Assembly (NCBI GenBank): GCA_963717145.1
Contig: OY970325.1
Coordinates: 2,304,001 to 2,368,000 of the forward strand
Reading direction: 5' to 3'
DNA length: 64,000 nt
Source of the DNA: an uncultured Armatimonadetes bacterium
GTDB taxonomy: Bacteria > Armatimonadota > UBA5829 > DTJY01
The translations under genes and the position numbers were made by a program. Below, in pieces: positions 2,750 to 62,201 of the stretch (its first letter is position 1; each line of letters begins with the position of its first letter). Under the pieces are notes generated by a model that saw only the letters and a list, made by a program, of their open reading frames with translations, ran no database searches and was not told where the DNA came from.

Positions 2750-2760
2750 ACGACGCCGCG

Positions 2761-4798: not shown

Positions 4799-4835
4799 TC
4801 ATTACTCCGGTGTGGAATCGACAAGCGTCCTACGC

Positions 4836-4899
4836 GTAGTGGCCGTGCCTCAGTGCCGGCCTCGAATGTTGCTGGCCGGCACTGAGGCACGGCCACTGC
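4836..4899. repeat. GTAG-type REP-like palindrome, family B (GTAGTGGCCGTGCCTC...)
   Basis: Inverted arms; sister copy at 10642-10706. Confidence 0.85.
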
Positions 4900-5043
4900 A
4901 TTACAGTACGAGAAGTGTGCTGCCCGATTATAGCACCGGGCGAACCACCTCGCAAGCATAAGTATTCGGCTGTGCTGCATCGGCGGAAATGGGAGCGAAA
5001 TGCCGAATTCGAACGTATATATACTTGGGTGTCGCGGCGTTCC

Positions 5044-5073
5044 TTGACACGGCGACGCCGCCGGACCTATAAT
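5044..5073 (+). promoter_or_regulatory. Sigma70 promoter of the PBP1A gene
   Basis: TTGACA-18 bp-TATAAT upstream of GGAGG and ATG 5099. Confidence 0.75.
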
Positions 5074-5098
5074 CGGCACGAGTGGAGGGGTTTTATTC

Positions 5099-7376: not shown

Positions 7377-7470
7377 GGGCGATCCTTCCACGGTCGCCCG
7401 TCCGTCGTCCGTAGGGGCGATCCTTCCACGGTCGCCCGGGGGACGGGAGGCCGTTGAAGGCCTCCCCTAC
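7373..7470. repeat. GTAG-type REP cluster, family A, between convergent genes
   Basis: Two GTAGGGGCGATCCTTCCACGGTCGCCC units plus inverted GTAGGGGAGGCCTTCAACGGCCTCCC; related copies at 12194-12288 and 27451-27529. Confidence 0.9.
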
Positions 7471-8258: not shown

Positions 8259-8287
8259 TGAGTTCCTTGCTGTTCCTTCAACTCCCA

Positions 8288-8366
8288 AATCCTACTCGTA
8301 CTCCTAATCGTAATCGTACTCGAAAGGCCGCCGAGTACGATTAGGATTAGGAGTACGAGTAGGATT
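8288..8366. repeat. Palindrome built from 6-bp units (TCGTAC/TCCTAA/TCGTAA)
   Basis: Inverted arms; half copy at about 33247-33280. Confidence 0.8.
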
Positions 8367-8368
8367 CG

Positions 8369-15856: not shown

Positions 15857-15917
15857 TGGGGAATGGCTGATGGGATCCCGCTCCGACATTAACCATTAAC
15901 CATCAGCCATTCCCCAT
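15841..15917. repeat. Palindrome of 7-bp units (ATGGTTG/CAACCAT type) between convergent genes
   Basis: ATGGTTGATGGTTGATGG...CCATTAACCATCAGCCAT. Confidence 0.75.
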
Positions 15918-21498: not shown

Positions 21499-21625
21499 TT
21501 CACCACGGAGAGCACGGAGGGCACGGCGGGCAGAGAATGGGAGAATGGGTGAAAGGACGAGTCCGGAATCCCCGGTTCTCCCACTCTCCCATTCCCCCAT
21601 TCTCCGCTTCCGTGCTCCGTGGTTC
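21499..21625. repeat. Composite palindrome (ACCACGGAG outer arms, 8-bp GGGAGAAT inner units)
   Basis: Read directly; half copy CTCCGTGTCCTCCGTGCCTCCGTGGTT at about 1160-1186. Confidence 0.7.
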
Positions 21626-30005: not shown

Positions 30006-30043
30006 TCCCAGTCGGCCTGCGCCCACTGTGATGGGTGCGGGCG

Positions 30044-31045
30044 CTACTTCGCCGGGTTCCACATGACCGCGTGTTCGTTGCCATCCTTGTCACGCGCCGC
30101 CCCGACGATGACGCCCGCGTCATTGATGTCATTCGCCCAACTCCCACGGCCGCCGAGCGTTCCCAGATCGGTCGGGACGCCGTTCGAATCCCAGACGACG
30201 GGGTGGATCTCGTTGTCGTCAGAGACGCACTGCCCGGCGATTACTCCCTTGCTGTTGATGCAGTCGGCGGAGCCGCCGCGGAAGCCTTCGGGCAGGTCCA
30301 GAATGGTGAACTTGCCGCTCCGGAGCACAAAGGGACGTTTTCCGACGGCGGTCGCATGGACGCCAACAACGGCCCCGTCGTCGGAGATGTCCTCCACGGC
30401 ACTCGGATCCAGCATGCCCTTGATGGGCCGCATCTTTCCGTTCTCCCACCACGCATGGTAGTACTTCTCGCCGCTGATCTTCATCGTGCACGCAGCCTGC
30501 CCCTTGTCGTTCAGTGCAACCATGTGGATGCCCGCCGTATGCGACGGCATCGGCAGAGCCTTCATAGTGCCGTTGTGGCGATAGGAAGGCTTCCAGTATC
30601 CTTTGTCATTGATGCACCAGCCGGCGATATCGCCCTGGTCGTTGATTGCAGAAGGGCTGACTGCTGCATATCCGGGCAGACCCCCGATCTTCTTGAAGAC
30701 GCCATTCCGCAGGACATACGCCCCACTCTTCGTAATGGTCAGAATCTGTCCCGCGTCGTTGATATCTGTGACCTGCGTTTCGTCCGCGGAGACAGGCGAC
30801 TTGACCTGCGTCATCCGGCCGTTCTCCCACAGGAACGACCGGATGAGGGGCTCGTCCTTGCCCTTGACCTTCCGCGCGAACTCGCACTTCCCAACCACCT
30901 GGCCCTTGTTGTTGAGAGCGATGGCGGTGCTGTTCACGGCCCCGGGGAGGATGCCGAGGTCCATGATAACGTACTTCGTCTCGGCGGTGGCGAGGTTGGC
31001 GGTGAGAAGGGTGAGGACGGTGATCGAATAGACGAGACGGCGCAT
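30044..31045 (-). CDS. Secreted HAF-type extracellular repeat protein, paralog 3
   Basis: Signal peptide, DLGILPG, repeated INxxG-x-VVG units, DLGTLGG, HAVMW. Confidence 0.8.
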   Translation of the reverse strand: MRRLVYSITVLTLLTANLATAETKYVIMDLGILPGAVNSTAIALNNKGQVVGKCEFARKVKGKDEPLIRSFLWENGRMTQVKSPVSADETQVTDINDAGQILTITKSGAYVLRNGVFKKIGGLPGYAAVSPSAINDQGDIAGWCINDKGYWKPSYRHNGTMKALPMPSHTAGIHMVALNDKGQAACTMKISGEKYYHAWWENGKMRPIKGMLDPSAVEDISDDGAVVGVHATAVGKRPFVLRSGKFTILDLPEGFRGGSADCINSKGVIAGQCVSDDNEIHPVVWDSNGVPTDLGTLGGRGSWANDINDAGVIVGAARDKDGNEHAVMWNPAK

Positions 31046-31078
31046 GGCAATGCCTCCGATGGTGTGATCGATCGGGCG

Positions 31079-32095
31079 CTACTTGACCGGCGTCCACATG
31101 ACCGCGTGGGAGGCGCCGGACTTGTCGAGCGACATCCCGATGAGCACTCCCGAGTTGTTGATGCCGGTCGCTCCGCTGTGCTTGCCGCCGAGCGTCGGGA
31201 GCGCGGTCGGGACCCCGGCCTTGTCCCACACGACCGCGCGCGTTCCATCCTCACCGGCCGCGCAGTAGCCGCCGATCACGCCACCGCTGTTTATGCAGGC
31301 GGGCAGTGGATCCTTGAGGCCCTTCGGCGCTATCAGGTACTTGGGCACGCCGTTCCGCATGACGCAGGGATGACTCTTGTCCGCAACAGAGCACCTCCCG
31401 ATGATCGTCCCGTCGTCCGAGATGGCATTCGGCTGCACACGGATCCGCGCCGGATCGTACTTCAGGTCCCTGAGCTTGCCGTTCTCCCACATCACCATGC
31501 GATCCGCCGCCGACCCGTCGATCGTCCCGAGGATGGCCGTGATCTGCCCCTTGTTGTTGAGGCTGCCGTAGTGCAGGAAGGGGAAGCGGGCGGGCTTCTC
31601 GAGGACCTTGGTGACGCCGTTGCGCCAGAGGAAGAGCACGGACTGCTCCGGCTGCCATTTCTCCTTGAAGCCGAAGCCAAGCACTTGGCCGAGGTTGTTG
31701 AGCTGGCCACCCACTTTGGAGTAGCCGGGGGGCGGCTCGATCTTCGTCGCCTTGCCTCCCTGGATGACGAACATGCCCTCCTCGCCGCATATCAGGACCT
31801 GGGACAAGTCGTTGATGTCAATGAAGATGTCGCCCTTCTTCACCGGCGACTCGATCTCCGAGATGCGCCCCTTGTCCCACAGGAACGGGCGCATCGGGGG
31901 ACGCCCCGCGCCCTCGAAGCCCTTCCTGCTCCCGCTCTGGCCGACGATCTGCCCCTTGCTGTTGATGGCGGCGGCCGTGCTATCCGTGTCGCCGGGCAGG
32001 ACGCCGAGGTCCTTGATGACGTACTTCGTCTCGGCGCAACTGAGGTTGCCGGCGATGAGGACGGTGAAGATGACTGCGCAGATGAGACGCCGCAT
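31079..32095 (-). CDS. Secreted HAF-type extracellular repeat protein, paralog 2
   Basis: Same architecture; GGAGG before ATG 32095. Confidence 0.8.
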   Translation of the reverse strand: MRRLICAVIFTVLIAGNLSCAETKYVIKDLGVLPGDTDSTAAAINSKGQIVGQSGSRKGFEGAGRPPMRPFLWDKGRISEIESPVKKGDIFIDINDLSQVLICGEEGMFVIQGGKATKIEPPPGYSKVGGQLNNLGQVLGFGFKEKWQPEQSVLFLWRNGVTKVLEKPARFPFLHYGSLNNKGQITAILGTIDGSAADRMVMWENGKLRDLKYDPARIRVQPNAISDDGTIIGRCSVADKSHPCVMRNGVPKYLIAPKGLKDPLPACINSGGVIGGYCAAGEDGTRAVVWDKAGVPTALPTLGGKHSGATGINNSGVLIGMSLDKSGASHAVMWTPVK

Positions 32096-32122
32096 GGTGA
32101 TGCCTCCCATAAAACCGTCGCC

Positions 32123-33124
32123 CTACTTGGCCGGGGTCCACATGACTGCGTGATTCTTCCCGCCCAGGTCCTGCGCGGACCCGACGATGACGCCCGCGTT
32201 ATTGATGGCACCGACCTGGCTGTTGTGCCCTCCGAGGGTCGGCAGAAGCTGCAGGTCGCCGGCCTTGTCCCATACGATCGCGCGATCGGTTCGTAGCTCC
32301 GTCGTGCACGTGCCCACACTCAGGCCGGCGTCGTTGATGCAGTCTATCGAAACGGGCATCATACCGTCGAGCATCTTCAGTTCGGTCCGAACACCTGCGC
32401 GGATGACGAACACCTTGTTCTCCTCGACCAGGTCGCGCGCGAGGATGGCGTCGGCGGAGATGTCTACTATGCTCTCATGGGCCGTCAGATCGTCCAACCG
32501 CGTCACTTTGCCGTCTTCCCAGAGGAAACTCGCCTTCGCGCCGTCCGGGCATCCGACGGTAGCCGCGACGCGGCCCTTTTCGTTGATCACCATCTTATCG
32601 ATGCAACTGAATTCCAGCGGCAGCGGGATCTTGGTGATCTTGTCGTCCTGCATGACGAAGACCTGCGAGTCGGGCCTCCCGAATTGATATGCGCCGACGA
32701 TCCGGCCCTTGTTGTTGATGTCGTCGAGCCGCGCCTCCTCGTAGCCCGTCTCGACCTCGATCTTTCGCACCGCGCCCTTGGCATAGAGGTAGGCAATTCC
32801 AGTGCTCTTCATGGGGAAGCTGCCCAAGTCGTTGATCGGTCCGGTCCAGACCTTGTCAGCACCCTCGGGCATCTTGATCTCGGTCATCTTCCCCTTCTCC
32901 CAGAGAAATGGGACCATGACCTGAACGCTCCTGTTCGCCCCCATGCGGCTGCCCCTGCAGGTGCCGACGATCTGCGTCTTGCCGTTGATACCCGTCGCAT
33001 GGCTGCTGAGGAACCCGGGCAGGATGCCGAGGTCCTTGATCGCGTACTTCGTCTCGGCGGTCGCCGGGTCTCCGACGAGCAGGGCGAGGGAGAGGAGAAT
33101 GGTTGCACAGATGATATATCGCAT
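32123..33124 (-). CDS. Secreted HAF-type extracellular repeat protein, paralog 1
   Basis: Same architecture; GGAGG before ATG 33124. Confidence 0.8.
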   Translation of the reverse strand: MRYIICATILLSLALLVGDPATAETKYAIKDLGILPGFLSSHATGINGKTQIVGTCRGSRMGANRSVQVMVPFLWEKGKMTEIKMPEGADKVWTGPINDLGSFPMKSTGIAYLYAKGAVRKIEVETGYEEARLDDINNKGRIVGAYQFGRPDSQVFVMQDDKITKIPLPLEFSCIDKMVINEKGRVAATVGCPDGAKASFLWEDGKVTRLDDLTAHESIVDISADAILARDLVEENKVFVIRAGVRTELKMLDGMMPVSIDCINDAGLSVGTCTTELRTDRAIVWDKAGDLQLLPTLGGHNSQVGAINNAGVIVGSAQDLGGKNHAVMWTPAK

Positions 33125-48209: not shown

Positions 48210-48294
48210 GGGTGTCATTCTGAGCGCAGTGAAGAATCTGGCTACCAGGGATGCTCAAAGCGCCAGATTCTTCACTGCGCTCAGAATGACACCC
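48210..48294. repeat. REP-like palindrome (TGTCATTCTGAGCG family), copy 2
   Basis: Perfect arms, matches 14453-14528. Confidence 0.88.
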
Positions 48295-48389
48295 ACCTAC
48301 TCCCACACTCCCATACTCCCACACTCCCTGTTTGACCTCCTCAGAGGTCTTACCGATTTCTCGTCGAACAAGGACAGTGGAGGAAGCCC

Positions 48390-49282: not shown

Positions 49283-50352
49283 ATGACGCCCAAAGAACGC
49301 GTGAGGATGGCGGTCAACCATATCCAGCCCGACCGCTGCCCGATTCAGACCTACCTCGAGCCGGAGGTCCGCGCCGTCATCGAGGATTACTTCGGCGGAC
49401 GGCCGGCGGAGGACGTCTTCGAAGTCGATCTGCGCTACGTCGGGCCGGGCAGGTGGGCCAAGACGAAGCAGCCCGCGCCGGGAAGCGGCATCGAGCACTA
49501 TGACGAGTGGGGCACCGGGTTCGCCCGAGTGCGCAACAGTGCGGGCGGCGAGTACCTGGAGGCGGTCGAGAAGCCGATCGCCAACCTCTCGACCATGGAT
49601 GAGGTCGTGGCCTATCCCTGGCCGAGCCCGAATGACTTCGACTACTCGACCATCCCGGAGCAGATCGAGAAGGTGAAGGATTACGCCGTATGTGCCGCCG
49701 GGTGCTGGCTGCCCGACATCATCAACGGGACCTCCTTCATGCGCGGCATGGAGAAGGTCCTCATGGAGATCGCGCTCGAGGACGAGGTCGGCGTGGCGAT
49801 CATCGACCGCCGGGTGGACTATGCCTATGAGTTCTGCAGGCGCGTTCTGGAAGCGGCTGGCGGCAAGGCGGATATCCTCTGCCTCGGCGAGGATCTCGGC
49901 ACTCAGAAAGGCCCGGTGATCAGCCCCGCGTGCTTCGACTCCTTCTTCCGACCCCGCATCCAGCGGTTCATCGATCTGGCCCACGACCACGGCGCGTTCT
50001 GCATGCTCCACTCCTGCGGCTCGACCCGAATCCTCCAGCCCAAGCTGATCGAGATGGGCCTCGACATCCTCGACGCCGTTCAGCCCGAGCCGGTGGGGAT
50101 GGACCCGGAAGGGCTCAAGCGCGACTTCGGCGACAAGCTGACCTACTGCGGCATGATAAGCACCCAGGGACTCTCCCGAACGGCACGGTCGATGAGTGTC
50201 GGGCCGAGGCGCGCCATCGCCTCGATGTCGTCGGCAAGGGCGGCGGGTACATCTTCTCGCCGGCCCACTGCATCCAGCCCGACACGCCGCTGGAGAACAT
50301 CCTGGCGATATACGAAGAAGCAACCGGGAAGAGGCTGATACGTGATGAGTGA
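49283..50352 (+). CDS. URO-D-fold family protein, apparent frameshift near 50172
   Basis: MTPKERV...PDRCP, RGME, LHSCG; GGGYIFSPAHCIQPDTPLEN in the second frame. Confidence 0.8.
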
Positions 50353-50551: not shown

Positions 50552-53500
50552 GTGATTACTGCTATGATTCACCGAATGGGACTACTCCTCACATCCATCA
50601 CTGTCTGTATCTTGCTCCTGTCGGCGATTCCGTGCCATGCCGGATTCCTCGACATCAGCGCCGGTCTGCCCGGTGCGCGGCATAGCAGCGTCGCGTGGGG
50701 CGACTACGACAACGACGGCGACCTGGACCTCGCACTCGCGGGAGATACCGGCGCAGGGTACATCTGCAGCATCTACGCCAGGAGCGGCGGCGCCTTCTCG
50801 TTGGCCATTTCGCTGACGGGGGTTACGGACAGCAGCCTTGCCTGGGGCGACTATGACAACGACGGGTACCTCGATCTCGCCGTCGCAGGGAACACCGGGA
50901 GCGGCTGTGTCTGCAAGGTCTACCGCAATATTCTCTCCGGATCGAGCAGGACGTTGTCCGAGGCGGCATCCCTGGCAGGAGTCTGCGACGGCAGCCTGGC
51001 CTGGGGCGACTACGACAACGACGGTGACCTCGACCTTTCCGTGGCAGGGAGCGGGACCGCCGCCGTGTACGAGTACGATAGCGGCGCCTTCACCAACATC
51101 AACGCCGACCTGCCCGGAGTCAGCCTTTGCAGCCTCGCGTGGGGCGACTACGACAACGACGGTGACCTCGATCTTGCCCTGGCAGGCAGCACCGGCACCG
51201 AGCGCATCAGCAGGATCTACCGGAACACCAACGGCACGTTCGCCGATATCAGCGCCGGCCTGACCGGGGTGGCCAACTGCAGCCTTGCGTGGGGCGACTA
51301 CGACAACGACGGATTCCTCGATCTCGCATTGGTGGGAGAGACCGTCGCCGGCAGCGCGGGCGTCTGCACAGTATACCGCAATGTCGCTGGCGGTTCAGAC
51401 AGGACGTTCTCTCCGATGGCCTCTCTGACCGCAGTGTACTACGCCAGCCTTGCCTGGGGCGACTACGACAACGACGGAGATCTCGATCTCGCCGTGTCAG
51501 GCCGCCGGGCCGGCACCGTCTCCCAGCTCACCTGCGTCTACCAGAACAGCGGCGGCTCGTTCAGCGCAGCCCACACCGTGACCGGGGTATGCTGGTGCAG
51601 CATCGCCTGGGGCGACTACGACAACGACGGAGATCTGGACCTGGCCACGGCAGGCTGGGGTTACGAAGGCTCATCTTGGCAGTATATGAGCCGCATCTAT
51701 CGCAACGACTCGGCCGTGCTCAACACCGTACCCTCAGCGCCGGCAGGCTTGTCGGCGACCGTCAACGCAGACGAACTGACCATGAGCTGGAGCGCGGCGA
51801 CCGACACCCAGACCCCTGCAGACGGCCTCTCCTACAACATCAGGGTCGGCACTACCCCGCTGGGCGGCAACATCTTCTCCGGCATGGCTTCGTCCCTTGG
51901 TCTGAGGAGGCTGCCGGCAACCGGCAATGCGCAGAAGAAGCTGACGTGGACAGTCAAGGGCCTGTCTGCCCCGCAAGTATACTGCAGCGTGCAGGCCGTT
52001 GACACCGCCTTCGCCGGATCTCCGTGGAGTAGCAGCGCCACGGCATATCAGTTGCCATGTTCGATCGCCGCCTGGGGAAGCAACACCTCCGGCCAGTGCA
52101 GCGTGCCGTCTCCGAACTCCAGGTTCGTGGCCGTTGCCGGGGGACACTCTCACAGCCTGGGACTCAAGTCAGACGGCTCGATCGCAGTCTGGGGAGGCGC
52201 CACCAACGTGCCATCTCCCAATTCCGGGTTCGTGGCCGTTTCCGCAGGAGTAGATTACAGCCTGGGACTCAAGTCAGACGGCTCGATCGTCGCCTGGGGA
52301 GTGAACAACTACGGCCAGTGCAACGTGCCATCTCCCAACTCCGGGTTCGTGGCCGTTGCCGCAGGATGGGGTCACGGCCTGGGGCTCAGGTCGGATGGCT
52401 CGATCGCAACCTGGGGAGACAACGAGGAGGGCCAGTGCAGCGTGCCGTCTCCGAACACCGGGTTCGTGGCCGTTGCCGCAGGATGGTATCACAGCCTGGG
52501 GCTGAGGTCGGACGGCTCGATTGTCGCCTGGGGACAAAACCTCTCCGGCGAGTGCAACGTTCCGTCTCCTAACTCCGGTTTCGTGGCTGTTGCCGCGGGA
52601 GGGTGGCACAGCCTGGGACTGAGGTCAAACAGTTCGATCGCCGCCTGGGGAAACAACTACTACGGCCAGTGCAGCGTGCCGTCTCCGAACACCGGTTTTG
52701 TGGGCGTTGATGGGGAATATGGGCACAGCCTGGGGCTGAGGTCGGACGGCTCGATCGCTGCCTGGGGATGGAACAACGTTGGCCAGTGCAATGTACCGTC
52801 ACCGAACGCCGGGTTCACGGCCGTTGCCGCGGGAGGGCAGCACTGCCTTGCGTTGGTCGAGCCCGGCGCCCTTCGTGTCACCATCCAGCCGTCGGAAGCA
52901 GCCGCCGCTGGCGCTCAGTGGCGGCGCTTGGGTACTAGTACCTGGTACAGCAGTGGAGATATGGAGAGTAGTATCCCCACCGGCGACTATACGGTGGAGT
53001 TCAAAGACATCGCCGGATGGGACAAGCCGACGAACACTCCCGTGAGTATTACCTACGGACAGACGACGCAAGCCGCCGTAACGTACATCCCGCATCCTGG
53101 CGCCCTCCAGGTAACCATCCAGCCCTCTGGGGCTGTCACGGCGGGCGCGCAGTGGCGGCGTGTGGGAACAAGTACATGGCTCGACAGTGGGGCCACAGAG
53201 AGCAGCATCACCGTCGGCGACTATACGGTCGAGTTCAAAGACGTCGCCGGATGGGACAAGCCTGCGAACACCCCCGTCAGCATCGTCTCAGATCAGACGG
53301 CGGAAGCCGGAGGAACGTACGTCCAGCGTCCCGGCGCGCTCCGGGTCACCATTCAGCCATCGGAAGCAGTCACCGCCGGCGCACAGTGGCGGCGCGTGGG
53401 AACGAGTACATGGCTCAACAGCGGGGCCACAGAGAGCAGCATCCCCGTCGGCAGCTATACTGTCGAATTCAAGGACGTCGGGGGATGGATCGAGCCTGCG

Positions 53501-55816
53501 AACACCCCCGTCAGCATCGTCTCAGACCAGACGACGCAAGCCGCAGGAACGTACATCCGGTCAGGAACGCTTCAAGTGACCATCGTGCCTTCGGAGGCAG
53601 TCACGGCGGGCGCGCAGTGGCGGCGCGTTGGGACGAGTACCTGGCGCAACAGCGGGACATATGAAGGTGGTATACCGTACGGGCAGTATCTGGTCGAGTT
53701 CAGGGAGATCGGCGGATATGTGAAGCCCAACAACATCCCGGTTGCCTTCAGTACAAGCTCGCTGTGCCGTATCATGGCGGAATACCGATCGCCTGGTTTG
53801 GTAGTCGCCTGGGGCGGCAACGGTGACGGCCAGTGCGATGTGCCGTCTCCGAGCACCGAGTTTGTGGCCGTTGCCGCAGGGCATTCTCACAGTCTGGCGC
53901 TCGGACTGGACGGCTCGATCGCTGCCTGGGGAAGGAACGACAACGGCCAGTGCGACGTGCCGTATCCGAACGCAGGTTTTGTGGCCGTTGCCGCAGGAGT
54001 CGCCCACAGCCTTGGGCTGAGGTCGGACGGCTCGATTGTCGCCTGGGGATCAACTACCAGCGTGCCGTCTCCGAACTCCGGGTTCGTGGCCGTTGCCGCA
54101 GGAGTCGCCCACAGCCTTGGGCTGAGGTCGGACGGCTCGATTGCCGCCTGGGGATCGGGTGCCAGTGTGCCGTCTCCGAACGCAGGTTTTGTGGCCGTTG
54201 CCGCAGGAAGCGTCCACAGCCTGGGACTCAGATCGGATGGCTCGATTGCCGCATGGGGAAGTAACACCTACGGCGAGTGCAGCGTGCCGTCTCCGAACGC
54301 CCAATTCGTGGCCGTTGCCGCAGGAGGCCATCACAGCCTGGGGCTGAAGTCGGACGGCTCGATCGCTGCCTGGGGATACAACGTGCACGGCGAGTGCAAC
54401 GTGCCGTATCCGAACACAGAGTTCACGGCCGTTGCCGGAGGAAGTTGGCACAGCCTGGGACTCAGGTCAGACGGCTCGATCGCCGCCTGGGGATTCAACG
54501 ATGACGGCCGGTGCAGCGTGCCGCCTCCGAACACAGAGTTCACGGCCGTTGCCGCAGGAAACACGCACAGCCTTGCACTGGTCAAGCAGGGTGCCCTTCG
54601 AGTGACCATCGAGCCACCGGAAGCAGTCACTGCGGGCGCGCAGTGGCGGCGCGCAGGAACGAGTACCTGGCTGAACAGCGGAGCCACCGAAAGCAACATT
54701 CGCGTAGGCAGCTATTCGGTCGAGTTCAAGGATGTCGTGGGATGGATCACGCCTACGCACATCCACGTTAGCATCGCCGCCGACCTGACAACGGAAACCG
54801 CAGGAACCTACATCCCGACAGGCGCCCTTCGGGTTACCATCCAACCCTCGGGAGCAGTCACTGCGGGCGCGCAGTGGCGGCGCGCAGGAACGAGTACCTG
54901 GCTGAACAGCGGAGCCACCGAAAGCAACATTCCCGTAGGCAGCTATTCGGTCGAGTTCCGGTATGTCGTGGGATGGATCAAGCCTGCGAATATCGCCGTG
55001 AGCATCACCGCCGCTCAGGCAGCGGAAGCCGCCGGAATGTACGTCCCGACAGGCGCCCTGCGGGTTACCATCCAACCCTCGGGAGCAGTCACTGCGGGCG
55101 CACAGTGGCGGCGCGTAGGCACGAGTACATGGCGTAACAGCGGAGTCACGGAGAGCAGTATCCCTGTTGGCGACTACACCATCGAGTTCAAGGACGTCGC
55201 CGGATGGGTTAGGCCCGCGGGCACTCCAGTCAGCATAGCGTCGGGTCAGACCACCCAGGCCGCCGGTATGTATGCCGCAGCAGTGACCCTCGGCGCGGCG
55301 AAGGGATCAGCACACGGGACGTCTGTGAGCTTCAAAGACGGGATAGTCACGGCTGTTGTTGATGGCGGCATCTACGTCGAGGCCGTTGACCGAAGCGCTG
55401 CGGTACGAGTGACCGGCGCAACATCGGTCGCTGTTGGTGACAAGGTAGAGGTCACTGGAGTAATGGACAGGACCGGTATCGAACCGGTCATATCTGCGAG
55501 TGTACTCCGAATCATGGAAGCGGGCGCGGGAGTCCCAACACCGCTGTATGCAGGTGGCCGCGACCTGCTTGCCGAGCCCGACTCGATAGGGAAGAGGGTG
55601 CATGTCTGCGGTCAGGTGGGGCAGGCGCTGTCCGGTTCCTTCCTGGTGGATGACGGCTCGGGCAAGCCATCGAGATGCATCATGCCGGACGGAGCATCGT
55701 TCAACACTTCAGCCACGTTCGTATTGGTGACGGGCGTCGTCTCAGTCGAGTTGCGGGAGGGCACGCCCCAGCCGGTGATACTGATCCAGGCCGCCGGTGA
55801 CCTGGTCTACCCGTAG
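50552..55816 (+). CDS. Large secreted repeat protein: FG-GAP/VCBS propeller, FN3-like, two RCC1-like propellers, seven PEGA-like spacers, C-terminal domain
   Basis: Signal peptide; 7x WGDYDNDG; 2x7 HSLGL-x-SDG-x4-WG repeats; 4+3 GAL-x-VTI-x-P...GAQWRR units; start may be ATG 50564 or 50576. Confidence 0.85.
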   Translation: MITAMIHRMGLLLTSITVCILLLSAIPCHAGFLDISAGLPGARHSSVAWGDYDNDGDLDLALAGDTGAGYICSIYARSGGAFSLAISLTGVTDSSLAWGDYDNDGYLDLAVAGNTGSGCVCKVYRNILSGSSRTLSEAASLAGVCDGSLAWGDYDNDGDLDLSVAGSGTAAVYEYDSGAFTNINADLPGVSLCSLAWGDYDNDGDLDLALAGSTGTERISRIYRNTNGTFADISAGLTGVANCSLAWGDYDNDGFLDLALVGETVAGSAGVCTVYRNVAGGSDRTFSPMASLTAVYYASLAWGDYDNDGDLDLAVSGRRAGTVSQLTCVYQNSGGSFSAAHTVTGVCWCSIAWGDYDNDGDLDLATAGWGYEGSSWQYMSRIYRNDSAVLNTVPSAPAGLSATVNADELTMSWSAATDTQTPADGLSYNIRVGTTPLGGNIFSGMASSLGLRRLPATGNAQKKLTWTVKGLSAPQVYCSVQAVDTAFAGSPWSSSATAYQLPCSIAAWGSNTSGQCSVPSPNSRFVAVAGGHSHSLGLKSDGSIAVWGGATNVPSPNSGFVAVSAGVDYSLGLKSDGSIVAWGVNNYGQCNVPSPNSGFVAVAAGWGHGLGLRSDGSIATWGDNEEGQCSVPSPNTGFVAVAAGWYHSLGLRSDGSIVAWGQNLSGECNVPSPNSGFVAVAAGGWHSLGLRSNSSIAAWGNNYYGQCSVPSPNTGFVGVDGEYGHSLGLRSDGSIAAWGWNNVGQCNVPSPNAGFTAVAAGGQHCLALVEPGALRVTIQPSEAAAAGAQWRRLGTSTWYSSGDMESSIPTGDYTVEFKDIAGWDKPTNTPVSITYGQTTQAAVTYIPHPGALQVTIQPSGAVTAGAQWRRVGTSTWLDSGATESSITVGDYTVEFKDVAGWDKPANTPVSIVSDQTAEAGGTYVQRPGALRVTIQPSEAVTAGAQWRRVGTSTWLNSGATESSIPVGSYTVEFKDVGGWIEPANTPVSIVSDQTTQAAGTYIRSGTLQVTIVPSEAVTAGAQWRRVGTSTWRNSGTYEGGIPYGQYLVEFREIGGYVKPNNIPVAFSTSSLCRIMAEYRSPGLVVAWGGNGDGQCDVPSPSTEFVAVAAGHSHSLALGLDGSIAAWGRNDNGQCDVPYPNAGFVAVAAGVAHSLGLRSDGSIVAWGSTTSVPSPNSGFVAVAAGVAHSLGLRSDGSIAAWGSGASVPSPNAGFVAVAAGSVHSLGLRSDGSIAAWGSNTYGECSVPSPNAQFVAVAAGGHHSLGLKSDGSIAAWGYNVHGECNVPYPNTEFTAVAGGSWHSLGLRSDGSIAAWGFNDDGRCSVPPPNTEFTAVAAGNTHSLALVKQGALRVTIEPPEAVTAGAQWRRAGTSTWLNSGATESNIRVGSYSVEFKDVVGWITPTHIHVSIAADLTTETAGTYIPTGALRVTIQPSGAVTAGAQWRRAGTSTWLNSGATESNIPVGSYSVEFRYVVGWIKPANIAVSITAAQAAEAAGMYVPTGALRVTIQPSGAVTAGAQWRRVGTSTWRNSGVTESSIPVGDYTIEFKDVAGWVRPAGTPVSIASGQTTQAAGMYAAAVTLGAAKGSAHGTSVSFKDGIVTAVVDGGIYVEAVDRSAAVRVTGATSVAVGDKVEVTGVMDRTGIEPVISASVLRIMEAGAGVPTPLYAGGRDLLAEPDSIGKRVHVCGQVGQALSGSFLVDDGSGKPSRCIMPDGASFNTSATFVLVTGVVSVELREGTPQPVILIQAAGDLVYP

Positions 55817-55960
55817 TACCAACCGCCTTCCAGATGGTCCGACGCAGGTCGGGCAGAGCCGGGGAGCCAATCCCATATTTGAAGAGTGAGGCAGAGCAGT
55901 TGTATAATTGCTCTGCCTTTTGTGTTACAGTGGCTCTCGTCAGCGGCGGTAGCGCGCAGA

Positions 55961-56007
55961 TGGAGAACATCCTGGCGATATATGAGGAAGCGACGGGCAA
56001 GAGGCTG
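55961..56007 (+). repeat. Diverged direct repeat of the 3' end of the URO-D gene (50291-50337)
   Basis: 47 bp with 5 mismatches, all synonymous third-codon positions. Confidence 0.85.
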
Positions 56008-56146: not shown

Positions 56147-57565
56147 ATGACTACAGAACTAGAGACCCCAAGCACCGAAGCAACCGAAAAACTGAACCTG
56201 AAATACGTCTGGACCATATCACTCGTCGCCGCGCTCGGCGGCCTGATGTTCGGCTACGACTGGGTGGTGGTCGGAGGGGCGAAGCTCTTCTACGAGAAGT
56301 TCTTCCATCTCACCGACCCCAATCAGATCGGATGGGCCATGAGCTGTGCCCTGGTCGGATGCCTGATCGGCGCATTGGCCGCGGGGGCGCTGAGCGACAA
56401 GTTCGGGCGCAGACGGCTGCTGATCGCGGCGGGGTTCATCTTCATCTACTCCTCAGTGGCGATCGCCCTCACGCGGGATTTCAATGCATTCGTGCTCTAC
56501 CGGATACTCGGCGGAATCGCCATCGGTCTGGCCTCCAACCTCTCGCCGGTCTACATCGCCGAGATCGCGCCCGCCCACATGCGAGGCCGACTGGTCGCGG
56601 TCAACCAGCTCACCATCGTCATCGGAGTGCTGCTTGCACAACTGGTGAACTGGCTCATCGCTCAGCCCATGGTTCCCGGTGCGACCGACCAGGCGATCCT
56701 GGCCTCGTGGAACGGGCAGATCGGCTGGAGATGGATGTTCGGCGCAACCGCCGTTCCCGCCACGCTCTTCTTCGTACTATCGTTCCTGATCCCGGAGAGC
56801 CCCAGGTGGCTGGTCAAGAACGGCAGCGACACCCGCGCCATGCATGTCCTGGAGAAGATCGGAGGGGCATCATACGCCGCGCGATCGCTCGTCAGCATCA
56901 AGGACACTCTGGTCAACGAGATCGGGAAGGTGAACTTCCGCGACCTCCTGCAGCCGAAGACGATGCGGATCATAGTCATCGGGGCGACGCTCGCCGTGCT
57001 CTCGCAGTGGAGCGGCATCAACGTGATACTCTACTACGGCCAGGAGGTCTTCACGGCGGCGGGCTATAAGGTCTCGGACATCCTGTTCAACATCGTCATC
57101 ACGGGCGCGGTGTTGCTCGTCTTCACGTTCGTCGCCATCGGAACGGTCGACCGAGGCGGGCGGAAGATACTCCTGCTGATCGGTTTGGCTGGCCTCACCA
57201 TCATCCACTCGGCCATCGGGTACTGCTTCCGCATCGAGAGCCAGGGCCTGCACGTCCTGATCCTCATCATGGCGGCGGTCGCCCTCTATGCGATGTCCCT
57301 CGCGGCGATGACCTGGGTGGTGCTCTCCGAGATATTCCCCAACCGCATACGTGGGGCGGCGATGTCGATCGCAGTGTTCGCGCTCTGGGCGGGCAATTTC
57401 GGGCTGACCTACTCGTTCCCGCATCTCCAGAAATCAGTCGGCGCGTCAGGCGCATTCTGGGTCTACGCGGCGATCTGCGGCGCAGGGTTCATCTTCGTCT
57501 CCCTCTGCATCCCCGAGACCAAAGGCAAGACCCTCGAGGAGATCGAACGGGAACTGGTCGACTGA
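56147..57565 (+). CDS. Sugar porter family MFS transporter (XylE/GalP-like)
   Basis: GGLMFGYD, DKFGRR, PESPRWL, SEIFPNRIRG, PETKGKTLEEI. Confidence 0.95.
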   Translation: MTTELETPSTEATEKLNLKYVWTISLVAALGGLMFGYDWVVVGGAKLFYEKFFHLTDPNQIGWAMSCALVGCLIGALAAGALSDKFGRRRLLIAAGFIFIYSSVAIALTRDFNAFVLYRILGGIAIGLASNLSPVYIAEIAPAHMRGRLVAVNQLTIVIGVLLAQLVNWLIAQPMVPGATDQAILASWNGQIGWRWMFGATAVPATLFFVLSFLIPESPRWLVKNGSDTRAMHVLEKIGGASYAARSLVSIKDTLVNEIGKVNFRDLLQPKTMRIIVIGATLAVLSQWSGINVILYYGQEVFTAAGYKVSDILFNIVITGAVLLVFTFVAIGTVDRGGRKILLLIGLAGLTIIHSAIGYCFRIESQGLHVLILIMAAVALYAMSLAAMTWVVLSEIFPNRIRGAAMSIAVFALWAGNFGLTYSFPHLQKSVGASGAFWVYAAICGAGFIFVSLCIPETKGKTLEEIERELVD

Positions 57566-57773
57566 TGCAGCTCGCGACCTGGCCTCAGGCGGATTGGAGC
57601 AGGATCAAACCGTTCCGCCACCCCGTCCGCCGAATTCGAGTTTGCAAAGAGCAAGTTGCCTAAGTCATTCCACGCATACCGCGAAGGATGATACTGTTTT
57701 TTCTACCAGGGATTGAGGATTCGTCGTCCGACGTTGGATATTCGCTGATTGATCCCGGGGGTGTCCGGCCAAC

Positions 57774-59330
57774 TCAACGGGAGTGGCCTTCCGAAACGGT
57801 GCTGGTCTGGGAAGGCGAGGAAGGCGAGAAAGGTGAGTACGGTGCTCTTTCCTCTGCCACCAGCAAGTCAGGGGCAGTCTGCGCGACATGGATATCGGCC
57901 AGCGATAGCTGCTGATCATCAGCGGACCTGCCGTAATGCTCCAACAACCGACGAACTGCCGTGGATGGCTTCGTACCGTTCCTGTGCTTGAATCTATGGT
58001 CAAGAAGAAGTCCAAGGAACTCATCCCGTTGGGTGTCAGACAGATCGCTAAGCTCCCGCCACCAGCGCTCGGTCGTCCCGTTGTTCTTATGGGTCCTTCG
58101 ATGGATGATGTAGTCTTCCGGCATCAGCAGAATCTTATGGAACTCGGTCACGTCTGCACCAAAGGCTGCGTTGAAGAAGTCTAGGCGGTGGGTGACGGCG
58201 CCGTATGTAGGTATTAGAATACACTGTATTGCTCGGAGAGATTTGCGATTCCAGTTTCTTCCTACATTTCCGGGTGTACTTGTTAAGCGATCCTTGCTCT
58301 GCAGATCAACATAGCGCATTGGAAACGAAAACAGCTGGATGCCCAAGTCCTGATTGAGCTCGACGTTGAGCTTGAGCCGCTCATAAAGGTCCTCAGGCCT
58401 GTCATGATAGTTGTAGAGCACATAGTTCGACAGCCTGCGAATTCCATGCTTCACCGCAAGCCGAACCTTCGATTCGTATAAGTCCTTGTCTGCGATGCTG
58501 TCGAAGGCGAGACGTAACGGCTGGATGGCAATCTCGCTGAGAAGCCCTGCATTCGTGTCGGACAGCAGCCGCATATCTACCCCTTGGTTGAAATCGACTC
58601 TGCGGCGCAGGGATATGGTCTGCCCTGCTTTGCCTTCACGCTTGAGGACCTCTCCCCGACCGAATCCGGAGAGCTTGATCTGTTCTACAATATCGGCAAA
58701 GCGCGTCGAAGCGAGTACATTGTTATCGAGTAGAACAAGATCTCTCTTCTTCCCATATCGCTGGTCTATCTCGGCCATGTGGTCAGCCAGGGGGATGTAG
58801 TCTTTGAACTCGGGCTCTATCTTGTGTACGGCACAGAACGAGCAGCGTCTGATGCAGCCACGAGTAGCGTATGCAAAATACGCGTCAGAGACCGGATACT
58901 CAACTGTATCCAAGAGGCTGTAATCGGGTAGCAGCGAATCAATCAGGCCGTCATCCTCGTATCCCAGCTTGCCGTTCTCATCCAGGAGCTGCTCTACTAC
59001 TCGGCAAGAGACCGATGTCCTGATATCATTGGCCATGAGGGTTGCCATAACTCCGCCGACTACCAGATTCTCGGCTGCGGGCTCTTTCACACTCTGCTGA
59101 TAGTACTTGAGTGCCCCTATGGTGTGAGCCCAATGGTAGGTGAACAAGCTTGAGACATAGACTCGGTCCCACTTCTCTTGGCGGTCGCGCTTCGTCGGGT
59201 CCAATCCCTTCACGAATTCGACGTGGTCACCTTTCCCCCTGTGATACTGGGAGATCTTCATCAGACCCAGCGGAGGGTACTTCTGCTTGTAGGCGGGATC
59301 GACGAGAAGAACATGTCGCTGGTTATGCAC
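57774..59330 (-). CDS. Radical SAM protein with B12-binding-like N-terminal region
   Basis: YPPLGLMKIS N-terminus; TRGCIRRCSFC CxxxCxxC; LLDNN, DFNQGVD, RLAFD. Confidence 0.85.
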   Translation of the reverse strand: MHNQRHVLLVDPAYKQKYPPLGLMKISQYHRGKGDHVEFVKGLDPTKRDRQEKWDRVYVSSLFTYHWAHTIGALKYYQQSVKEPAAENLVVGGVMATLMANDIRTSVSCRVVEQLLDENGKLGYEDDGLIDSLLPDYSLLDTVEYPVSDAYFAYATRGCIRRCSFCAVHKIEPEFKDYIPLADHMAEIDQRYGKKRDLVLLDNNVLASTRFADIVEQIKLSGFGRGEVLKREGKAGQTISLRRRVDFNQGVDMRLLSDTNAGLLSEIAIQPLRLAFDSIADKDLYESKVRLAVKHGIRRLSNYVLYNYHDRPEDLYERLKLNVELNQDLGIQLFSFPMRYVDLQSKDRLTSTPGNVGRNWNRKSLRAIQCILIPTYGAVTHRLDFFNAAFGADVTEFHKILLMPEDYIIHRRTHKNNGTTERWWRELSDLSDTQRDEFLGLLLDHRFKHRNGTKPSTAVRRLLEHYGRSADDQQLSLADIHVAQTAPDLLVAEERAPYSPFSPSSPSQTSTVSEGHSR

Positions 59331-60302
59331 TCATGCCTCCTCACCGAAGAACTCTTGTGTTGCCCCGACGTTGTCAACTGGTTCTTCTGTTTCCCAATCT
59401 CCACACGGTTCCCGCACAATCGTTTCATCGGTTGCTCTTGAACTCATGCCCAAGAGGAAATCACGGGCCGTCTGTGTCTCCTTTGGAAACGCAAGGCGTC
59501 TGGGGTCGTACCTACACAGTATCGTAAAGTGCAGCATCGGACTGCCGGGTGTGTGGCCCACATACTTCACCATAGGAAGAAAATGCGTGCTTATCGCCCG
59601 CCCATTGCAGTAGTCCCTCATCATAGTAAAGACAAATGCCTTTAGATGAGCGGAACTCCTAACCATCTGCTGCTGTCCATCGCCACCCCGTGCGAGAGGT
59701 GGCAGTCCTTGCAGATAAGTGTGGGTCGCCTCAGGCAAGTCGGCACGGTTTGCCAATTCGTCCAGTATCGCGATCTTGCAGTCCTCGCGAATCGTGAGCA
59801 GGATCACAAAGCGTGGGTCTCCCCCATTCCGCAGCAGATCCTCCTGAATCGACGTTAGACTCCTCAATGCCGCAAAACGCAGGCATTTCTCGCCACCTGG
59901 CTGTTTTATCTTTCCCGTGATGGCATTGCAGAAATCGAGGTTGAACAAGGTGACGACCTCATCAAGCCCAAATGCCTCGTTGTTGTCATCCCTGCCAGAC
60001 AGGAACGCGCTTTCCAGGTACCCCGTAAACACCCTGCTCGGGATCCCTGTTCTCCGCAAGGTAGCTGTGAGGTCGATTAGGTTCTGACGGGGATTCCGTA
60101 ACCGTCTGTCCTCAAGCTCAAACGCTATGACACGTCTGATCATGTTCCGCCAGAGCAAGATATCCAAGGCCTCCGGGCCGGGCAGTCCGCAGTATAGATA
60201 GTCTCTGTGGAATTGGTCACGTATGGCCTGAAGAACTGGGGTATTCCATACCGACCGGACGGTCTCTTTTCTGGGGGAGTTAGTTGACGCAGCGGCAGAC
60301 AT
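59331..60302 (-). CDS. Hypothetical protein, probable class I SAM-methyltransferase-like fold
   Basis: YCGLPGP (motif I-like), VIAFE (acidic strand-2 end), FNLDFCN (strand-4 motif); overlaps upstream stop (TGATG). Confidence 0.55.
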   Translation of the reverse strand: MSAAASTNSPRKETVRSVWNTPVLQAIRDQFHRDYLYCGLPGPEALDILLWRNMIRRVIAFELEDRRLRNPRQNLIDLTATLRRTGIPSRVFTGYLESAFLSGRDDNNEAFGLDEVVTLFNLDFCNAITGKIKQPGGEKCLRFAALRSLTSIQEDLLRNGGDPRFVILLTIREDCKIAILDELANRADLPEATHTYLQGLPPLARGGDGQQQMVRSSAHLKAFVFTMMRDYCNGRAISTHFLPMVKYVGHTPGSPMLHFTILCRYDPRRLAFPKETQTARDFLLGMSSRATDETIVREPCGDWETEEPVDNVGATQEFFGEEA

Positions 60303-61909
60303 CAGGCTCGCTCCTCCAGATACTCCCGAAGTGCCTCCAGCTCAGCGGTGTACTGATCTGGCGACAAATGCGGTTTGACAAGACGATCATCAATATAAGC
60401 AACAGCAAGCCTCATCGGCTCCGTGACGACAATATCGAGGGCTTCCAGTGCATCGGTCAACGTGCGCGGACGGTCCTCCCTATGCGCGGTCTCTTCTTCT
60501 GTCGGCTCCTCGCCCTCGCGATCAGCCACTCGGTCAACTAGGTCTCTCGGCTTCACCTTCTTCTTCTGGCTGAGAATGCCCTGGATACCCTTCTCAGCTT
60601 CGTCCAAGACCTCGACAGCCTGCTCAAGACGGTCTTTCCTATCCTTCGCCAGGATGGGCTTATATAGGCTGAGCGCTTTCCTGATGTTGGCCAACTCCAC
60701 AATGAGCTTCATGAGTTCATCAACGTCGGTCCTGACTTCAGGCAACAACTTGTTGATCGCAAACACACGGGGCTGCGCCTCGTCGAGAACCTCATAGGCC
60801 TTCAGCTGATTCTGAATCTTGGTACCCCATGTCTGCAGTTCGGAGATGACTTCAGACAGCGCAACCCTGAAGCGCCCGCGAGTTTCGTTGTTCTCGAAAT
60901 CAGATCGGGCAGCATTGGGAACTAGGTCCCGATGCTGGGCAATGACCTCGCCTGTCATTCGACGATACAGGACCGTCTTGCTGAAATATGGCTCGAGGTA
61001 CTCCCGGTTCGCGATGGAGAAGCCGTACTTCTTGACCAAGAGCCCCCGAAGCTCTCTATCACTCAGAACCGTCCTTGCATCGTTGAGGCATGCCCAAACG
61101 AAGCCAAAGTGCTCTTTGGTTTCTCGATCAGTAATATTGGATATTCTCGGCTCGAACTGGCCACCGTGGACAAACACATCGTCGGTGTATGGTCGGTACA
61201 ATGGCGACGCCTGAGTACCTACGCGCAGGACGAGGTCCACTACCCTGTAATCTGTGTCCTTGAATTTCTTGGTGATCACGTCGCGGTATCTGAAATCAGG
61301 AGCGAATGGAAGAGGGACCGTGTTGCGCAGGTAGGCTCTGACTGCACCCAAGTCGGCCAACTGCCTGGATACGGCCGCTCTGACACCTATCATCATAACG
61401 AGCGTGCCTGGACGCTGCAATGGTGCTTCTTGGTCGTCGTCAACTGCCACCGCCTGGCTCATCATCTTCTCGAGATGGAGGCTGCTTGGTCGGCCTAGCT
61501 TACGCTTCTCTTCTTCGTCCTCCAGCATGTCGCGAACATCGCGGAACGCCACCGTGATGATTGAGGCAGAGCCGTCCTCGTGTCGAGTATGGATCTCCAG
61601 GTTATCGCAGAGGTTGAAACTGCTGTAGATACCGATTCCCCGAAAGCCCACATTGTCCAAAGGGTTCTTGTCCGACATTCCCAGTCGGATTGCACTTATA
61701 GCGCCATCTCGGGTCATGCCGATTCCGTTATCTCGGACCGACACCACGTCCTTGGTCAGCTCTATCTCAATGCGCGATGCTTTCGCGTCGATAGAATTCT
61801 GGATGTACTCCCTAAGGGCATCAAGCGGATCCCTGTATAGCCCACTGGTAAGTGCAGGGAATAGCTCGGCTCCGATGTCCTCCGGGGCAAAACGTCTTAT
61901 TGGACTCAT
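60302..61909 (-). CDS. MORC/Hsp90-type GHKL ATPase with S5-like domain and helical tail
   Basis: REYIQNSIDA, DNGIGM, GFRGIG, GT Bergerat motifs; GEV...LVPNAARSDFE; GGAGG before ATG 61909. Confidence 0.85.
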   Translation of the reverse strand: MSPIRRFAPEDIGAELFPALTSGLYRDPLDALREYIQNSIDAKASRIEIELTKDVVSVRDNGIGMTRDGAISAIRLGMSDKNPLDNVGFRGIGIYSSFNLCDNLEIHTRHEDGSASIITVAFRDVRDMLEDEEEKRKLGRPSSLHLEKMMSQAVAVDDDQEAPLQRPGTLVMMIGVRAAVSRQLADLGAVRAYLRNTVPLPFAPDFRYRDVITKKFKDTDYRVVDLVLRVGTQASPLYRPYTDDVFVHGGQFEPRISNITDRETKEHFGFVWACLNDARTVLSDRELRGLLVKKYGFSIANREYLEPYFSKTVLYRRMTGEVIAQHRDLVPNAARSDFENNETRGRFRVALSEVISELQTWGTKIQNQLKAYEVLDEAQPRVFAINKLLPEVRTDVDELMKLIVELANIRKALSLYKPILAKDRKDRLEQAVEVLDEAEKGIQGILSQKKKVKPRDLVDRVADREGEEPTEEETAHREDRPRTLTDALEALDIVVTEPMRLAVAYIDDRLVKPHLSPDQYTAELEALREYLEERA

Positions 61910-62201
61910 GTCGGTTCCCTCCAAATGAAGCGGCTGATAGGCCAGCGAATATCAAGCCGGCACCAGGATAACCAAGAATACCATCATAGACCCACGTCAT
62001 GCAAGAACACTGGGAAAGGGGTCCGGCTGCCCGGCTCGTGAAAGAGACACGCGTCCGGTGGGTAAACCTCGCCACGGCCACTTGTGAAGAGGTCACGGCG
62101 TGAAGTACCTGTTCCGGCGATCATCATCCATGCAATCGTGGACGGAGGGTGACATCGCTCCCGATGCACCGGGTGATCTTCTCGGTCATCACCCACCATG
62201 C

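Follow-up and report, generated by a model that had tools for sequence, protein, structure and literature searches.

What is the function of a compact, comparatively AT-rich block of three genes that sits between unrelated genes in the genome of an uncultured Armatimonadetes bacterium? The block occupies positions 57774-61909 of the window, the 64,000-nucleotide (nt) stretch of DNA analysed here (assembly GCA_963717145.1, contig OY970325.1, positions 2,304,001 to 2,368,000), and encodes on the minus strand a GHKL ATPase, a methyltransferase-fold protein and a radical S-adenosylmethionine (SAM) enzyme. An initial annotation, made from the sequence alone, had proposed that these genes form a novel system for defence or for DNA or nucleotide modification. 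We find that the trio is a real, conserved and horizontally acquired mobile cassette, and that its radical SAM enzyme is the constant part of a larger family in which the DNA-handling arms are interchangeable. The conserved cassette of the initial proposal is thus upheld, and its status as a stand-alone invention is not, the trio being one arm of this larger radical SAM family.

A three-gene cassette in distant phyla

The three genes are packed into about 4.1 kb and joined in a way that bears out the translational coupling first proposed for them. The ATPase gene (60302-61909, minus strand; 535 amino acids from its ATG) is the first of the three. Its open reading frame (ORF) extends to 61924 with a TTG start, and the in-frame ATG at 61909, chosen as the start in the initial annotation, is preceded about 8 nt upstream by GGAGGG, a ribosome-binding site found by direct reading of the sequence (61910-61925, minus strand). 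The ATPase stop codon (60302-60304) shares one base with the ATG of the middle gene (60300-60302) in the sequence TGATG, and the stop codon of the middle gene (59331-59333; gene 59331-60302, minus strand, 323 amino acids) abuts the GTG start (59328-59330) of the radical SAM gene (57774-59330, minus strand, 518 amino acids), the position at which aligned radical SAM homologues also begin. Base composition sets the cassette apart from its surroundings, as had been noted, with a GC content of 0.508-0.558 (500-nt windows, 58000-61999) as compared to 0.61-0.65 upstream of 57000 and 0.63-0.68 beyond 62000.

Scanning genome contigs with an alignment of the middle gene yielded 33 loci anchored on this gene, whose hosts, according to record titles, represent at least seven phyla (Planctomycetota, Chloroflexota, Bacteroidota, Ignavibacteriota, Fibrobacterota, Cyanobacteriota, Bacillota and a proteobacterium). 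At a tblastn threshold of E≤1e-3 the ATPase was detected in 30 of these loci (directly upstream and on the same strand in 29 of the 33), and the radical SAM gene in 28; 27 contained the two together, and the trio therefore recurs well beyond the window. The loci that lacked a full trio by this measure were L001, L003, L009, L010, L011 and L021. Among them, L011 is cut by a contig end, L010, the one locus inspected for an alternative third gene, carries downstream a large serine recombinase that marks the edge of a mobile element, and L001 is a 28th trio locus with a divergent radical SAM ORF that was found only by clustering.

An extended, six-gene form was present at 12 of the 33 loci, where the trio is accompanied by two genes without a Pfam match, here called c3 and c4, and by a second GHKL paralogue. 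The c4 protein (5122-6783 of locus L017) has weak matches to the PADLOC models mad8 (1e-6) and HerA (6.3e-4) and to an NCBIfam HerA model (6.1e-3), and is possibly a HerA/FtsK-type ATPase; c3 gave no match at all.

The distribution of the trio is very sporadic. Among 41 genomes of relatives, only the window's own yielded the middle gene; 2 of 401 Bacteroidota genomes also have it, and a survey of 401 genomes from the window's phylum turned up the radical SAM gene in seven. One of these seven, G169, carries a full trio in which the ATPase shares 36%, the middle protein 31% and the radical SAM enzyme 56% identity with the window's proteins. The same genome holds a second cassette (L047, G169:C1:2946000-2964000, 1983-9372) composed of c3, c4, a GHKL paralogue and a radical SAM gene, with no methylase-fold gene; its ATPase gene is interrupted by a 511-residue reverse-strand ORF without a Pfam match, possibly an insertion element. 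With the same search tool, 23 proteins including the query were found for the middle gene versus more than 5127 for the radical SAM gene, many of the latter at 50-62% identity. No match to the middle protein was found by tblastn against plasmids and phages, and none of the 33 pattern hits obtained by scanning viral contigs with the middle-gene alignment was confirmed.

Folds and motifs of the three proteins

What kind of enzyme lies at the end of the operon? The CxxxCxxC motif on which its initial assignment was based (C159, C163 and C166) is invariant in two alignments of homologues (25/25 and 21/21), neither of which contains any further invariant cysteine. Its structural model (predicted local distance difference test score, pLDDT, 84.6; tail disordered from residue 470) was matched by VIA-align to AprD4 (6fd2_A, Z 19.1, 357 residues aligned), MgmA (9ccb_A, Z 18.1), MiaB (7mjv_A, Z 16.6), RimO (Z 15.9), TsrM (Z 14.9), TokK (Z 14.2) and OxsB (Z 13.5), with all of these alignments spanning both domains (317-380 residues), and Foldseek returned the same set. 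The invariant cysteine triad together with a fold match of up to Z 19.1 places the protein in the radical SAM superfamily. At the sequence level, the Pfam Radical_SAM model scored 22.7 bits (cut-off 29.5), a PDB search with the protein gave no match at E≤1, and the best profile match had an E value of 0.014.

The N-terminal residues 1-127 of the model match MgmA, TsrM, TokK, OxsB and cobalamin-binding proteins at Z 8-10, in agreement with the B12-binding-like N-terminus suggested at the outset, and NCBI labels relatives of the enzyme 'cobalamin-binding domain-containing protein'. AprD4, the closest structural match, works without B12. Membership of the MiaB/RimO methylthiotransferases was considered and rejected, as the N-terminal domain has no invariant cysteine triad for a second [4Fe-4S] cluster.

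The middle protein had been described from its sequence as carrying a degenerate SAM-binding Rossmann pattern. It found no match in a local copy of the Pfam-A library from which PF28273 is absent. An AlphaFold2 model built from a 23-sequence alignment reached a pLDDT of 90.9, and its top VIA-align match was Trm1 (3axt_A, Z 14.4, root-mean-square deviation 4.1, 228 residues aligned at 8% identity), a second Trm1 chain (2dul_A) scoring Z 12.1. RlmO, an RsmD-like enzyme and TYW2 followed; the top 50 matches contained only class I methyltransferases, and 259 chains reached Z≥8. Foldseek similarly returned methyltransferases at a probability of 1.00 throughout, among the matches listed. The middle protein is, according to this model, a class I SAM-dependent methyltransferase fold of the nucleic-acid methyltransferase kind, and the structure search thus gives substance to the pattern first seen in the sequence. 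A PDB search with the middle-gene profile produced a single chance match (0.73) and hence no sequence-level link to solved chains.

With respect to family, Atlas neighbour clusters of the middle protein carry PF28273 PP_RS20740 (score 0.96) on 26-47% of their members, and the same family was precomputed for 5 of the 22 other proteins found as relatives of the middle gene. Against the corresponding NCBIfam model NF047698 (PP_RS20740), the protein scores 18.2 bits where the cut-off is 200, and it is therefore no equivalog; a search of its own genome and 14 control genomes with NF047698 gave no match in any of them. Searching 1.84 billion representatives with the middle-gene profile recovered 450 relatives at E≤0.001, 313 at 1e-10 and 126 at 1e-30, nearly all of the 450 being stand-alone proteins of 280-345 residues. 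The present data provide a first structural and genomic context for the uncharacterised PF28273/PP_RS20740 family, which with 450 representatives among 1.84 billion is rare.

These fold matches raise the possibility that the cassette acts on RNA, or tailors a peptide or small molecule, with the Trm1-like protein methylating tRNA, rRNA or a metabolite, the radical SAM enzyme adding a second modification and the ATPase serving as a chaperone-like assembly factor. The best matches of both proteins are indeed RNA or metabolite enzymes (Trm1, RlmO, RsmD-like and TYW2 for one; MiaB, RimO, AprD4, MgmA and TsrM for the other), and the flanks of the window's cassette are ordinary cellular genes. However, the distribution of the middle gene is too sporadic for a housekeeping modification (1/41 and 2/401 genomes). 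The auxiliary cysteine triad of MiaB/RimO-type enzymes is missing, and across the 33 loci neither a conserved precursor-peptide gene nor biosynthetic neighbours were found, the flanks differing from locus to locus. Sister cassettes, moreover, are rich in DNA helicases and ParB/SMC-type proteins. We consider an RNA- or metabolite-directed function highly unlikely.

Turning to the ATPase, a score of 57.6 bits against Pfam HATPase_c_3 (cut-off 25) assigns it to the GHKL (Bergerat-fold) proteins. The complete ATP-binding set initially reported was confirmed by an alignment of 26 ATPases, in which E34/N38/D41, D60xGxG64, G88xxGxG93 and G168 are invariant (26/26) and T169 is nearly so; judged from these residues, the ATP site is intact. 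K294 and P331..R335, also invariant in the alignment, could be the S5 motif. By contrast to the GHKL assignment, the designation 'MORC-like' is too specific, because the protein is equally near to HtpG/TRAP1 and MutL (profile matches of 5.7e-7 to 4e-6) and to MORC (MORC3, 5.2e-6 over residues 28-186), and because sequence and profile matches to MutL, Hsp90 and MORC3/4 are all restricted to the GHKL domain (residues ~14-186).

Could the ATPase and the methylase-fold protein work as a pair? A predicted complex of the two scored 0.67, versus 0.00 for the best of three controls. Among solved complexes, 58 of 80 attain this score, as do 2 of 110 mismatched pairs, rates that apply only approximately here because our own alignments were supplied. 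Between runs, the agreement in contacts is at least 0%; the partner pLDDT is at least 82, and the predicted interface joins the N-domain sheet of the ATPase (residues 50-57, 102-107 and 161-175) to partner residues 70-93. The prediction supports binding of the methylase-fold protein to the N-terminal domain of the ATPase.

Such a pair might form a restriction-like unit, in which the ATPase and its methylase-shaped partner restrict DNA by cutting or blocking it through an activity that has escaped recognition, and modification by the radical SAM enzyme gives protection, so that three genes would make up a full self/non-self system. Consistent with this scheme are the predicted binding itself and the similarity of the GHKL domain to the BbrUII/HgiDII restriction-enzyme model (NF050001, 4.8e-9) and to PADLOC REase_II (9.2e-6). 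The restriction-enzyme matches, however, cover only the GHKL domain (residues 24-143), and in the last ~190 residues, which are poorly conserved (only L484, D507, Y520 and L527 are kept there), no nuclease-like motif, including a conserved acidic/lysine one, was seen in the 26-sequence alignment. A restriction pair of this kind is therefore very improbable.

A radical SAM enzyme with exchangeable partners

If the trio is a cassette, which of its parts is the core? We addressed this question with 80 metagenome loci anchored on the radical SAM gene alone and sorted by partner context. SMC and helicase genes accompanied the enzyme in 19 of these loci, GHKL with ParB/helicase genes in 10, DGQHR genes in 8, ParB/helicase genes in another 8, GHKL with DGQHR in 7 and GHKL alone in 6. 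The methylase-fold plus GHKL combination of the window was seen in five loci, as was GHKL with c3/c4; DGQHR with ParB/helicase and c3/c4 by themselves were each found twice, GHKL with DGQHR and ParB/helicase once, and the methylase-fold gene alone once, leaving six loci with no recognised partner. Judged from PDB matches, the partners include an XPB/Rad25-like helicase (1.3e-27) and a Rad50-like ATPase (2.7e-6); a further, large partner has a helix-turn-helix resembling sigma region 4.

For example, the radical SAM enzymes nearest to that of the window (50-54% identity) occupy a five-gene cassette (L051, 224-8001, and 12-17 similar metagenome loci) that encodes a 996-residue protein with a sigma region 4-like helix-turn-helix, an XPB-like helicase, a Rad50/SMC-like ATPase, a 147-residue protein and the radical SAM enzyme; its partner clusters d11, d8, d4 and d6 recur in 9, 13, 18 and 17 loci, respectively. 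Similarly, alphaproteobacterial conjugative plasmids (L129-L131; NC_012854.1, NC_002033.1 and NZ_CP064694.1), namely Rhizobium pR132505, Novosphingobium pNL1 and a Bradyrhizobium plasmid, carry in series genes for a PIN-like, an ATP-binding, a DGQHR, a radical SAM and a second ATP-binding protein, annotated only generically; ParB N-terminal and DEAD/DEAH helicase genes lie close to them. A candidate for the nuclease arm that is absent from the window's cassette is the PIN-like protein of these plasmids.

A quick FastTree phylogeny of 104 radical SAM ORFs of at least 380 residues (79 of the 80 metagenome loci and 25 from trio loci) groups the window's enzyme with enzymes of SMC plus helicase context (support 98), while the methylase-fold plus GHKL context is scattered over several separate clades. 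Because contexts are mixed across the tree in this manner, the phylogeny indicates that partner arms have been exchanged around the radical SAM enzyme. In viral sequence, 38 IMG/VR contigs carry the radical SAM gene and 23 of these also carry a GHKL gene, and distant short homologues of the enzyme stand alone in phage replication and modification regions.

One further locus (L046; G030:C36, 7504-10565) encodes a radical SAM homologue of 53% identity without the first ~60 residues, in frame across one TGA behind an ORF with a BglII-like restriction-endonuclease fold (Pfam 2.7e-8) and ahead of a PHP-domain gene. It may represent another arm or a decayed locus.

Are these cassettes found among defence genes? 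In PADLOC-DB v2.0.0 the middle and radical SAM proteins had no matches, the ATPase had weak matches in its GHKL domain only (TmtA, REase_II and MzaB, at 3.1e-7 or weaker), and homologues from Flavobacteriales likewise matched no system, as the initial annotation had expected for the cassette. The flanks of the 33 middle-gene loci were tallied from 125 of the 178 flanking ORFs, namely those of at least 190 residues less four giant ORFs, which were scanned separately. They include the defence genes DruE, Cas9, a PD-T4-6-like kinase, type IIG/I restriction-methylases (four ORFs), ZorD/DpdE-type SNF2 proteins (two) and AbiEi (two), in addition to relaxases, transposases and a serine recombinase. 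Some of the loci thus have defence or mobile genes as neighbours, which the window's own cassette does not.

In the window, the low-GC inserted block as a whole, delimited by composition, flank annotation and the finding of the middle gene in 1 of 41 relatives' genomes, extends from the MFS transporter gene to the next host-like ORF (57566-61983, no strand assigned). Its neighbours are unrelated to the cassette, as initially described, and comprise an MFS sugar transporter (56147-57565), a 1754-residue RCC1/FG-GAP protein and a CarboxypepD_reg protein, with PrmA and DnaJ farther away. The cassette is also free of host repeats, as judged from the window's 20 largest direct-repeat families, which have no copy within 57774-61909, and no flanking direct repeats or target-site or att-like repeats were found around it. 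No empty site was identified: of 11 family genomes, only the window's own yielded the adjoining MFS transporter (at 1e-60). Promoter and terminator scans gave values near shuffle expectation (6 vs 2.7 and 5 vs 3.1, respectively).

Elsewhere in the window, short tandem arrays of a ACTCCCAT-like octamer and GATGGTT-like heptamers (3765-3808, 21577-21604, 48291-48334, 15841-15873 and 19176-19222) may be the 'host REP repeats' of the initial annotation; none lies in the cassette. The gene for the 1754-residue protein (50552-55816), which has FG-GAP repeats and 11 RCC1 repeats, contains long internal DNA repeats, and a 53-nt stretch occurs on both sides of it at 87% identity (50285-50337 and 55955-56007). 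Three tandem paralogous units spaced ~1035-1050 nt apart at 30041-33089 (repeat families D6, D7, D9 and D12) suggest a tandem array of related genes.

A proposed DNA-directed module and its relation to known systems

What, then, does the cassette act upon? The other partners of the radical SAM enzyme are DNA-handling proteins (SMC-like ATPase, helicases, ParB and DGQHR), which suggests that the target is DNA rather than a small molecule. Furthermore, a constant Fe-S enzyme combined with interchangeable ParB/DGQHR, SMC-like, helicase and GHKL parts mirrors DNA-marking machines, which leads us to regard the radical SAM enzyme as a catalyst that modifies or damages DNA; it probably marks or attacks DNA. 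The reading that we favour, giving it about an even chance, is that the cassette is an ATP-driven DNA-modification or DNA-policing module of an unnamed radical SAM-centred family. We are equally divided as to whether the GHKL ATPase and its methylase-shaped partner constitute one of several ATP-driven DNA-handling heads.

In such a module, the GHKL ATPase would bind DNA as an ATP-closed dimeric clamp together with its partner, and the partner would act as a base-flipping reader or as a second methylase. The task of the two proteins would be to hold out a target base or sugar for the radical SAM enzyme, or else to inspect DNA for its mark; the enzyme itself would write the modification by means of a 5'-deoxyadenosyl radical, perhaps as a cobalamin-dependent C-methylation. 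In operation the module would correspond to the modification half of Dnd/Ssp/Dpd-type systems, with the GHKL ATPase playing the role of the SMC-like ATPase of sister cassettes and the methylase-fold protein replacing their DGQHR/ParB protein.

A number of observations weigh against this reading. The middle protein may not bind SAM, because in an alignment of 37 sequences its motif I reads GLP(G/S) and lacks the GxGxG loop, and because the acid of motif II is Glu in 17 and Gln in the other 20. An N-L-D-(F/Y) motif IV follows strand 4 in 37/37 sequences, but 33 of the 37 were retrieved by that very pattern, so that the invariance of NLDFC in these 33 is partly by construction. The nearest structural relatives of both SAM-fold proteins (Trm1, MiaB, RimO, AprD4 and MgmA) act on RNA or small molecules. 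One of the three complex runs scored 0.00. The methylase-fold arm occurs in only 6 of the 80 radical SAM loci and in none of the 38 radical SAM-bearing IMG/VR contigs, and the tree from which the exchange of arms was deduced is rooted at its midpoint and has long branches. Ordinary genes, with no defence island, flank the window's cassette, most flanking ORFs of the 33 loci are unrelated (157 Pfam families in 125 ORFs), and the tally of defence genes among them has no background control. Finally, the trio contains no recognisable nuclease, as was noted from the start, and restriction of unmarked DNA would therefore require an unrecognised activity of the ATPase and its partner or a gene elsewhere.

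A rival reading is an abortive-infection or effector module, in which the ATPase is an infection-sensing switch that releases the radical SAM enzyme, the methylase-fold protein or both. Nucleic acid of the host or phage would then be damaged or modified, or a toxic nucleotide produced in the manner of viperin, with no self-marking involved. A trio without a nuclease or separate 'restriction' gene is in keeping with this proposal, as are the defence and mobile genes near some loci and the faster evolution of the middle gene relative to the radical SAM gene in the G169 trio (31% vs 56% identity). In addition, the accessible part of a 2026 preprint (10.64898/2026.10.19.760177) places a three-gene neighbourhood of a PAACC effector, an HSP90-type protein and a radical SAM protein among predicted immune systems and treats HSP90-like NTPases as switches. 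That triad, as far as it is described there, resembles the cassette in combining an HSP90-type ATPase and a radical SAM protein with a fast-evolving enzymatic third protein; by description, its third protein is cNMP-cyclase-like, whereas that of the cassette models as a class I methyltransferase (top 50 VIA-align matches). However, the ParB/DGQHR, SMC-like ATPase and helicase partners of the radical SAM enzyme look more like parts of modification machineries than like toxin-antitoxin pairs, the structural match of viperin to the enzyme's model is weak (5vsl_A, Z 8.5, vs Z 14-19 for B12-type enzymes), and the ORF list shows no antitoxin-like small gene in the window's cassette. An abortive-infection function thus appears unlikely.

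Returning to the favoured DNA-directed module, a bolder version of it, which is possible though rather doubtful, would make the radical SAM family the writer of a radical-installed DNA modification of a kind not yet known, such as a C-methyl or carbon-linked mark on a base or deoxyribose. A whole polymorphic class of mobile self/non-self systems would employ this modification, with the GHKL plus methylase-fold, SMC plus helicase and ParB/DGQHR plus helicase arms as alternative ATP-driven scanning heads. Were this bolder version correct, the enzyme would be the first of the radical SAM superfamily to act on DNA directly as an epigenetic or immune marker. Any modification of DNA by it would add a marking chemistry beyond methyl transfer, phosphorothioation and deazaguanine insertion, and the three-gene cassette would be a defined place in which to find it. 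The modular swapping of arms also amounts to a natural experiment, in which one catalytic core is served by different ATP-driven DNA clamps.

How does the cassette compare with systems already described? In the accessible literature we found no description of the trio, nor of a radical SAM family with ParB, DGQHR or SMC partners; the only trace was one sentence in the preprint mentioned above, whose supplements may list it. Prokaryotic MORC/paraMORC-type GHKL ATPases have been placed in restriction-modification operons (Iyer, Abhiman and Aravind 2008, PMC2292703), and, as presented in the available part of that work, they share with the cassette a GHKL ATPase in a mobile operon with SAM-dependent nucleic-acid enzymes. 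They differ from it in that the cassette's ATPase is as near to HtpG, TRAP1 and MutL, and in that it is accompanied not by a classical methylase and endonuclease but by a radical SAM enzyme and a PF28273-type protein.

Among individual enzymes, the fold match of the middle protein to Trm1, the m2,2G26 tRNA methyltransferase, spans the Rossmann core and the C-terminal part, and its N-L-D-F/Y sequence after strand 4 is one that we take to resemble the D-P-F motif IV of Trm1. Unlike Trm1, to which it is 8% identical, the middle protein has a degenerate motif I, Glu or Gln in motif II and a GHKL ATPase partner gene (30/33 loci). The radical SAM enzyme, for its part, shares with B12-domain radical SAM enzymes and with MiaB/RimO a Rossmann N-domain followed by a radical SAM barrel (Z 13.5-19.1), but it has no significant sequence match to any solved chain (best profile E 0.014) and no auxiliary cysteine triad, and the partners of its family are DNA proteins instead of antibiotic or tRNA pathways.

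A parallel in layout is offered by the Dnd/Ssp/Dpd systems. The DGQHR domain is described as ParB-like and tied to DNA-modification systems in the accessible parts of two studies (PMC3632139, PMC3226654). No homologue of DndA/C/E, SspA-D or DpdA was seen. In the Dnd system DndB is a DGQHR/ParB-like protein and DndD an SMC-like ATPase, and the sister cassettes similarly assemble DGQHR, ParB N-terminal, SMC/Rad50-like ATPase and helicase proteins around one catalytic Fe-S enzyme. In contrast to Dnd/Ssp/Dpd, the catalytic core of the cassette is predicted from its model to be a radical SAM TIM-barrel with a B12-like domain, and the window's version has a GHKL ATPase and a methylase fold in place of the ParB/SMC parts.

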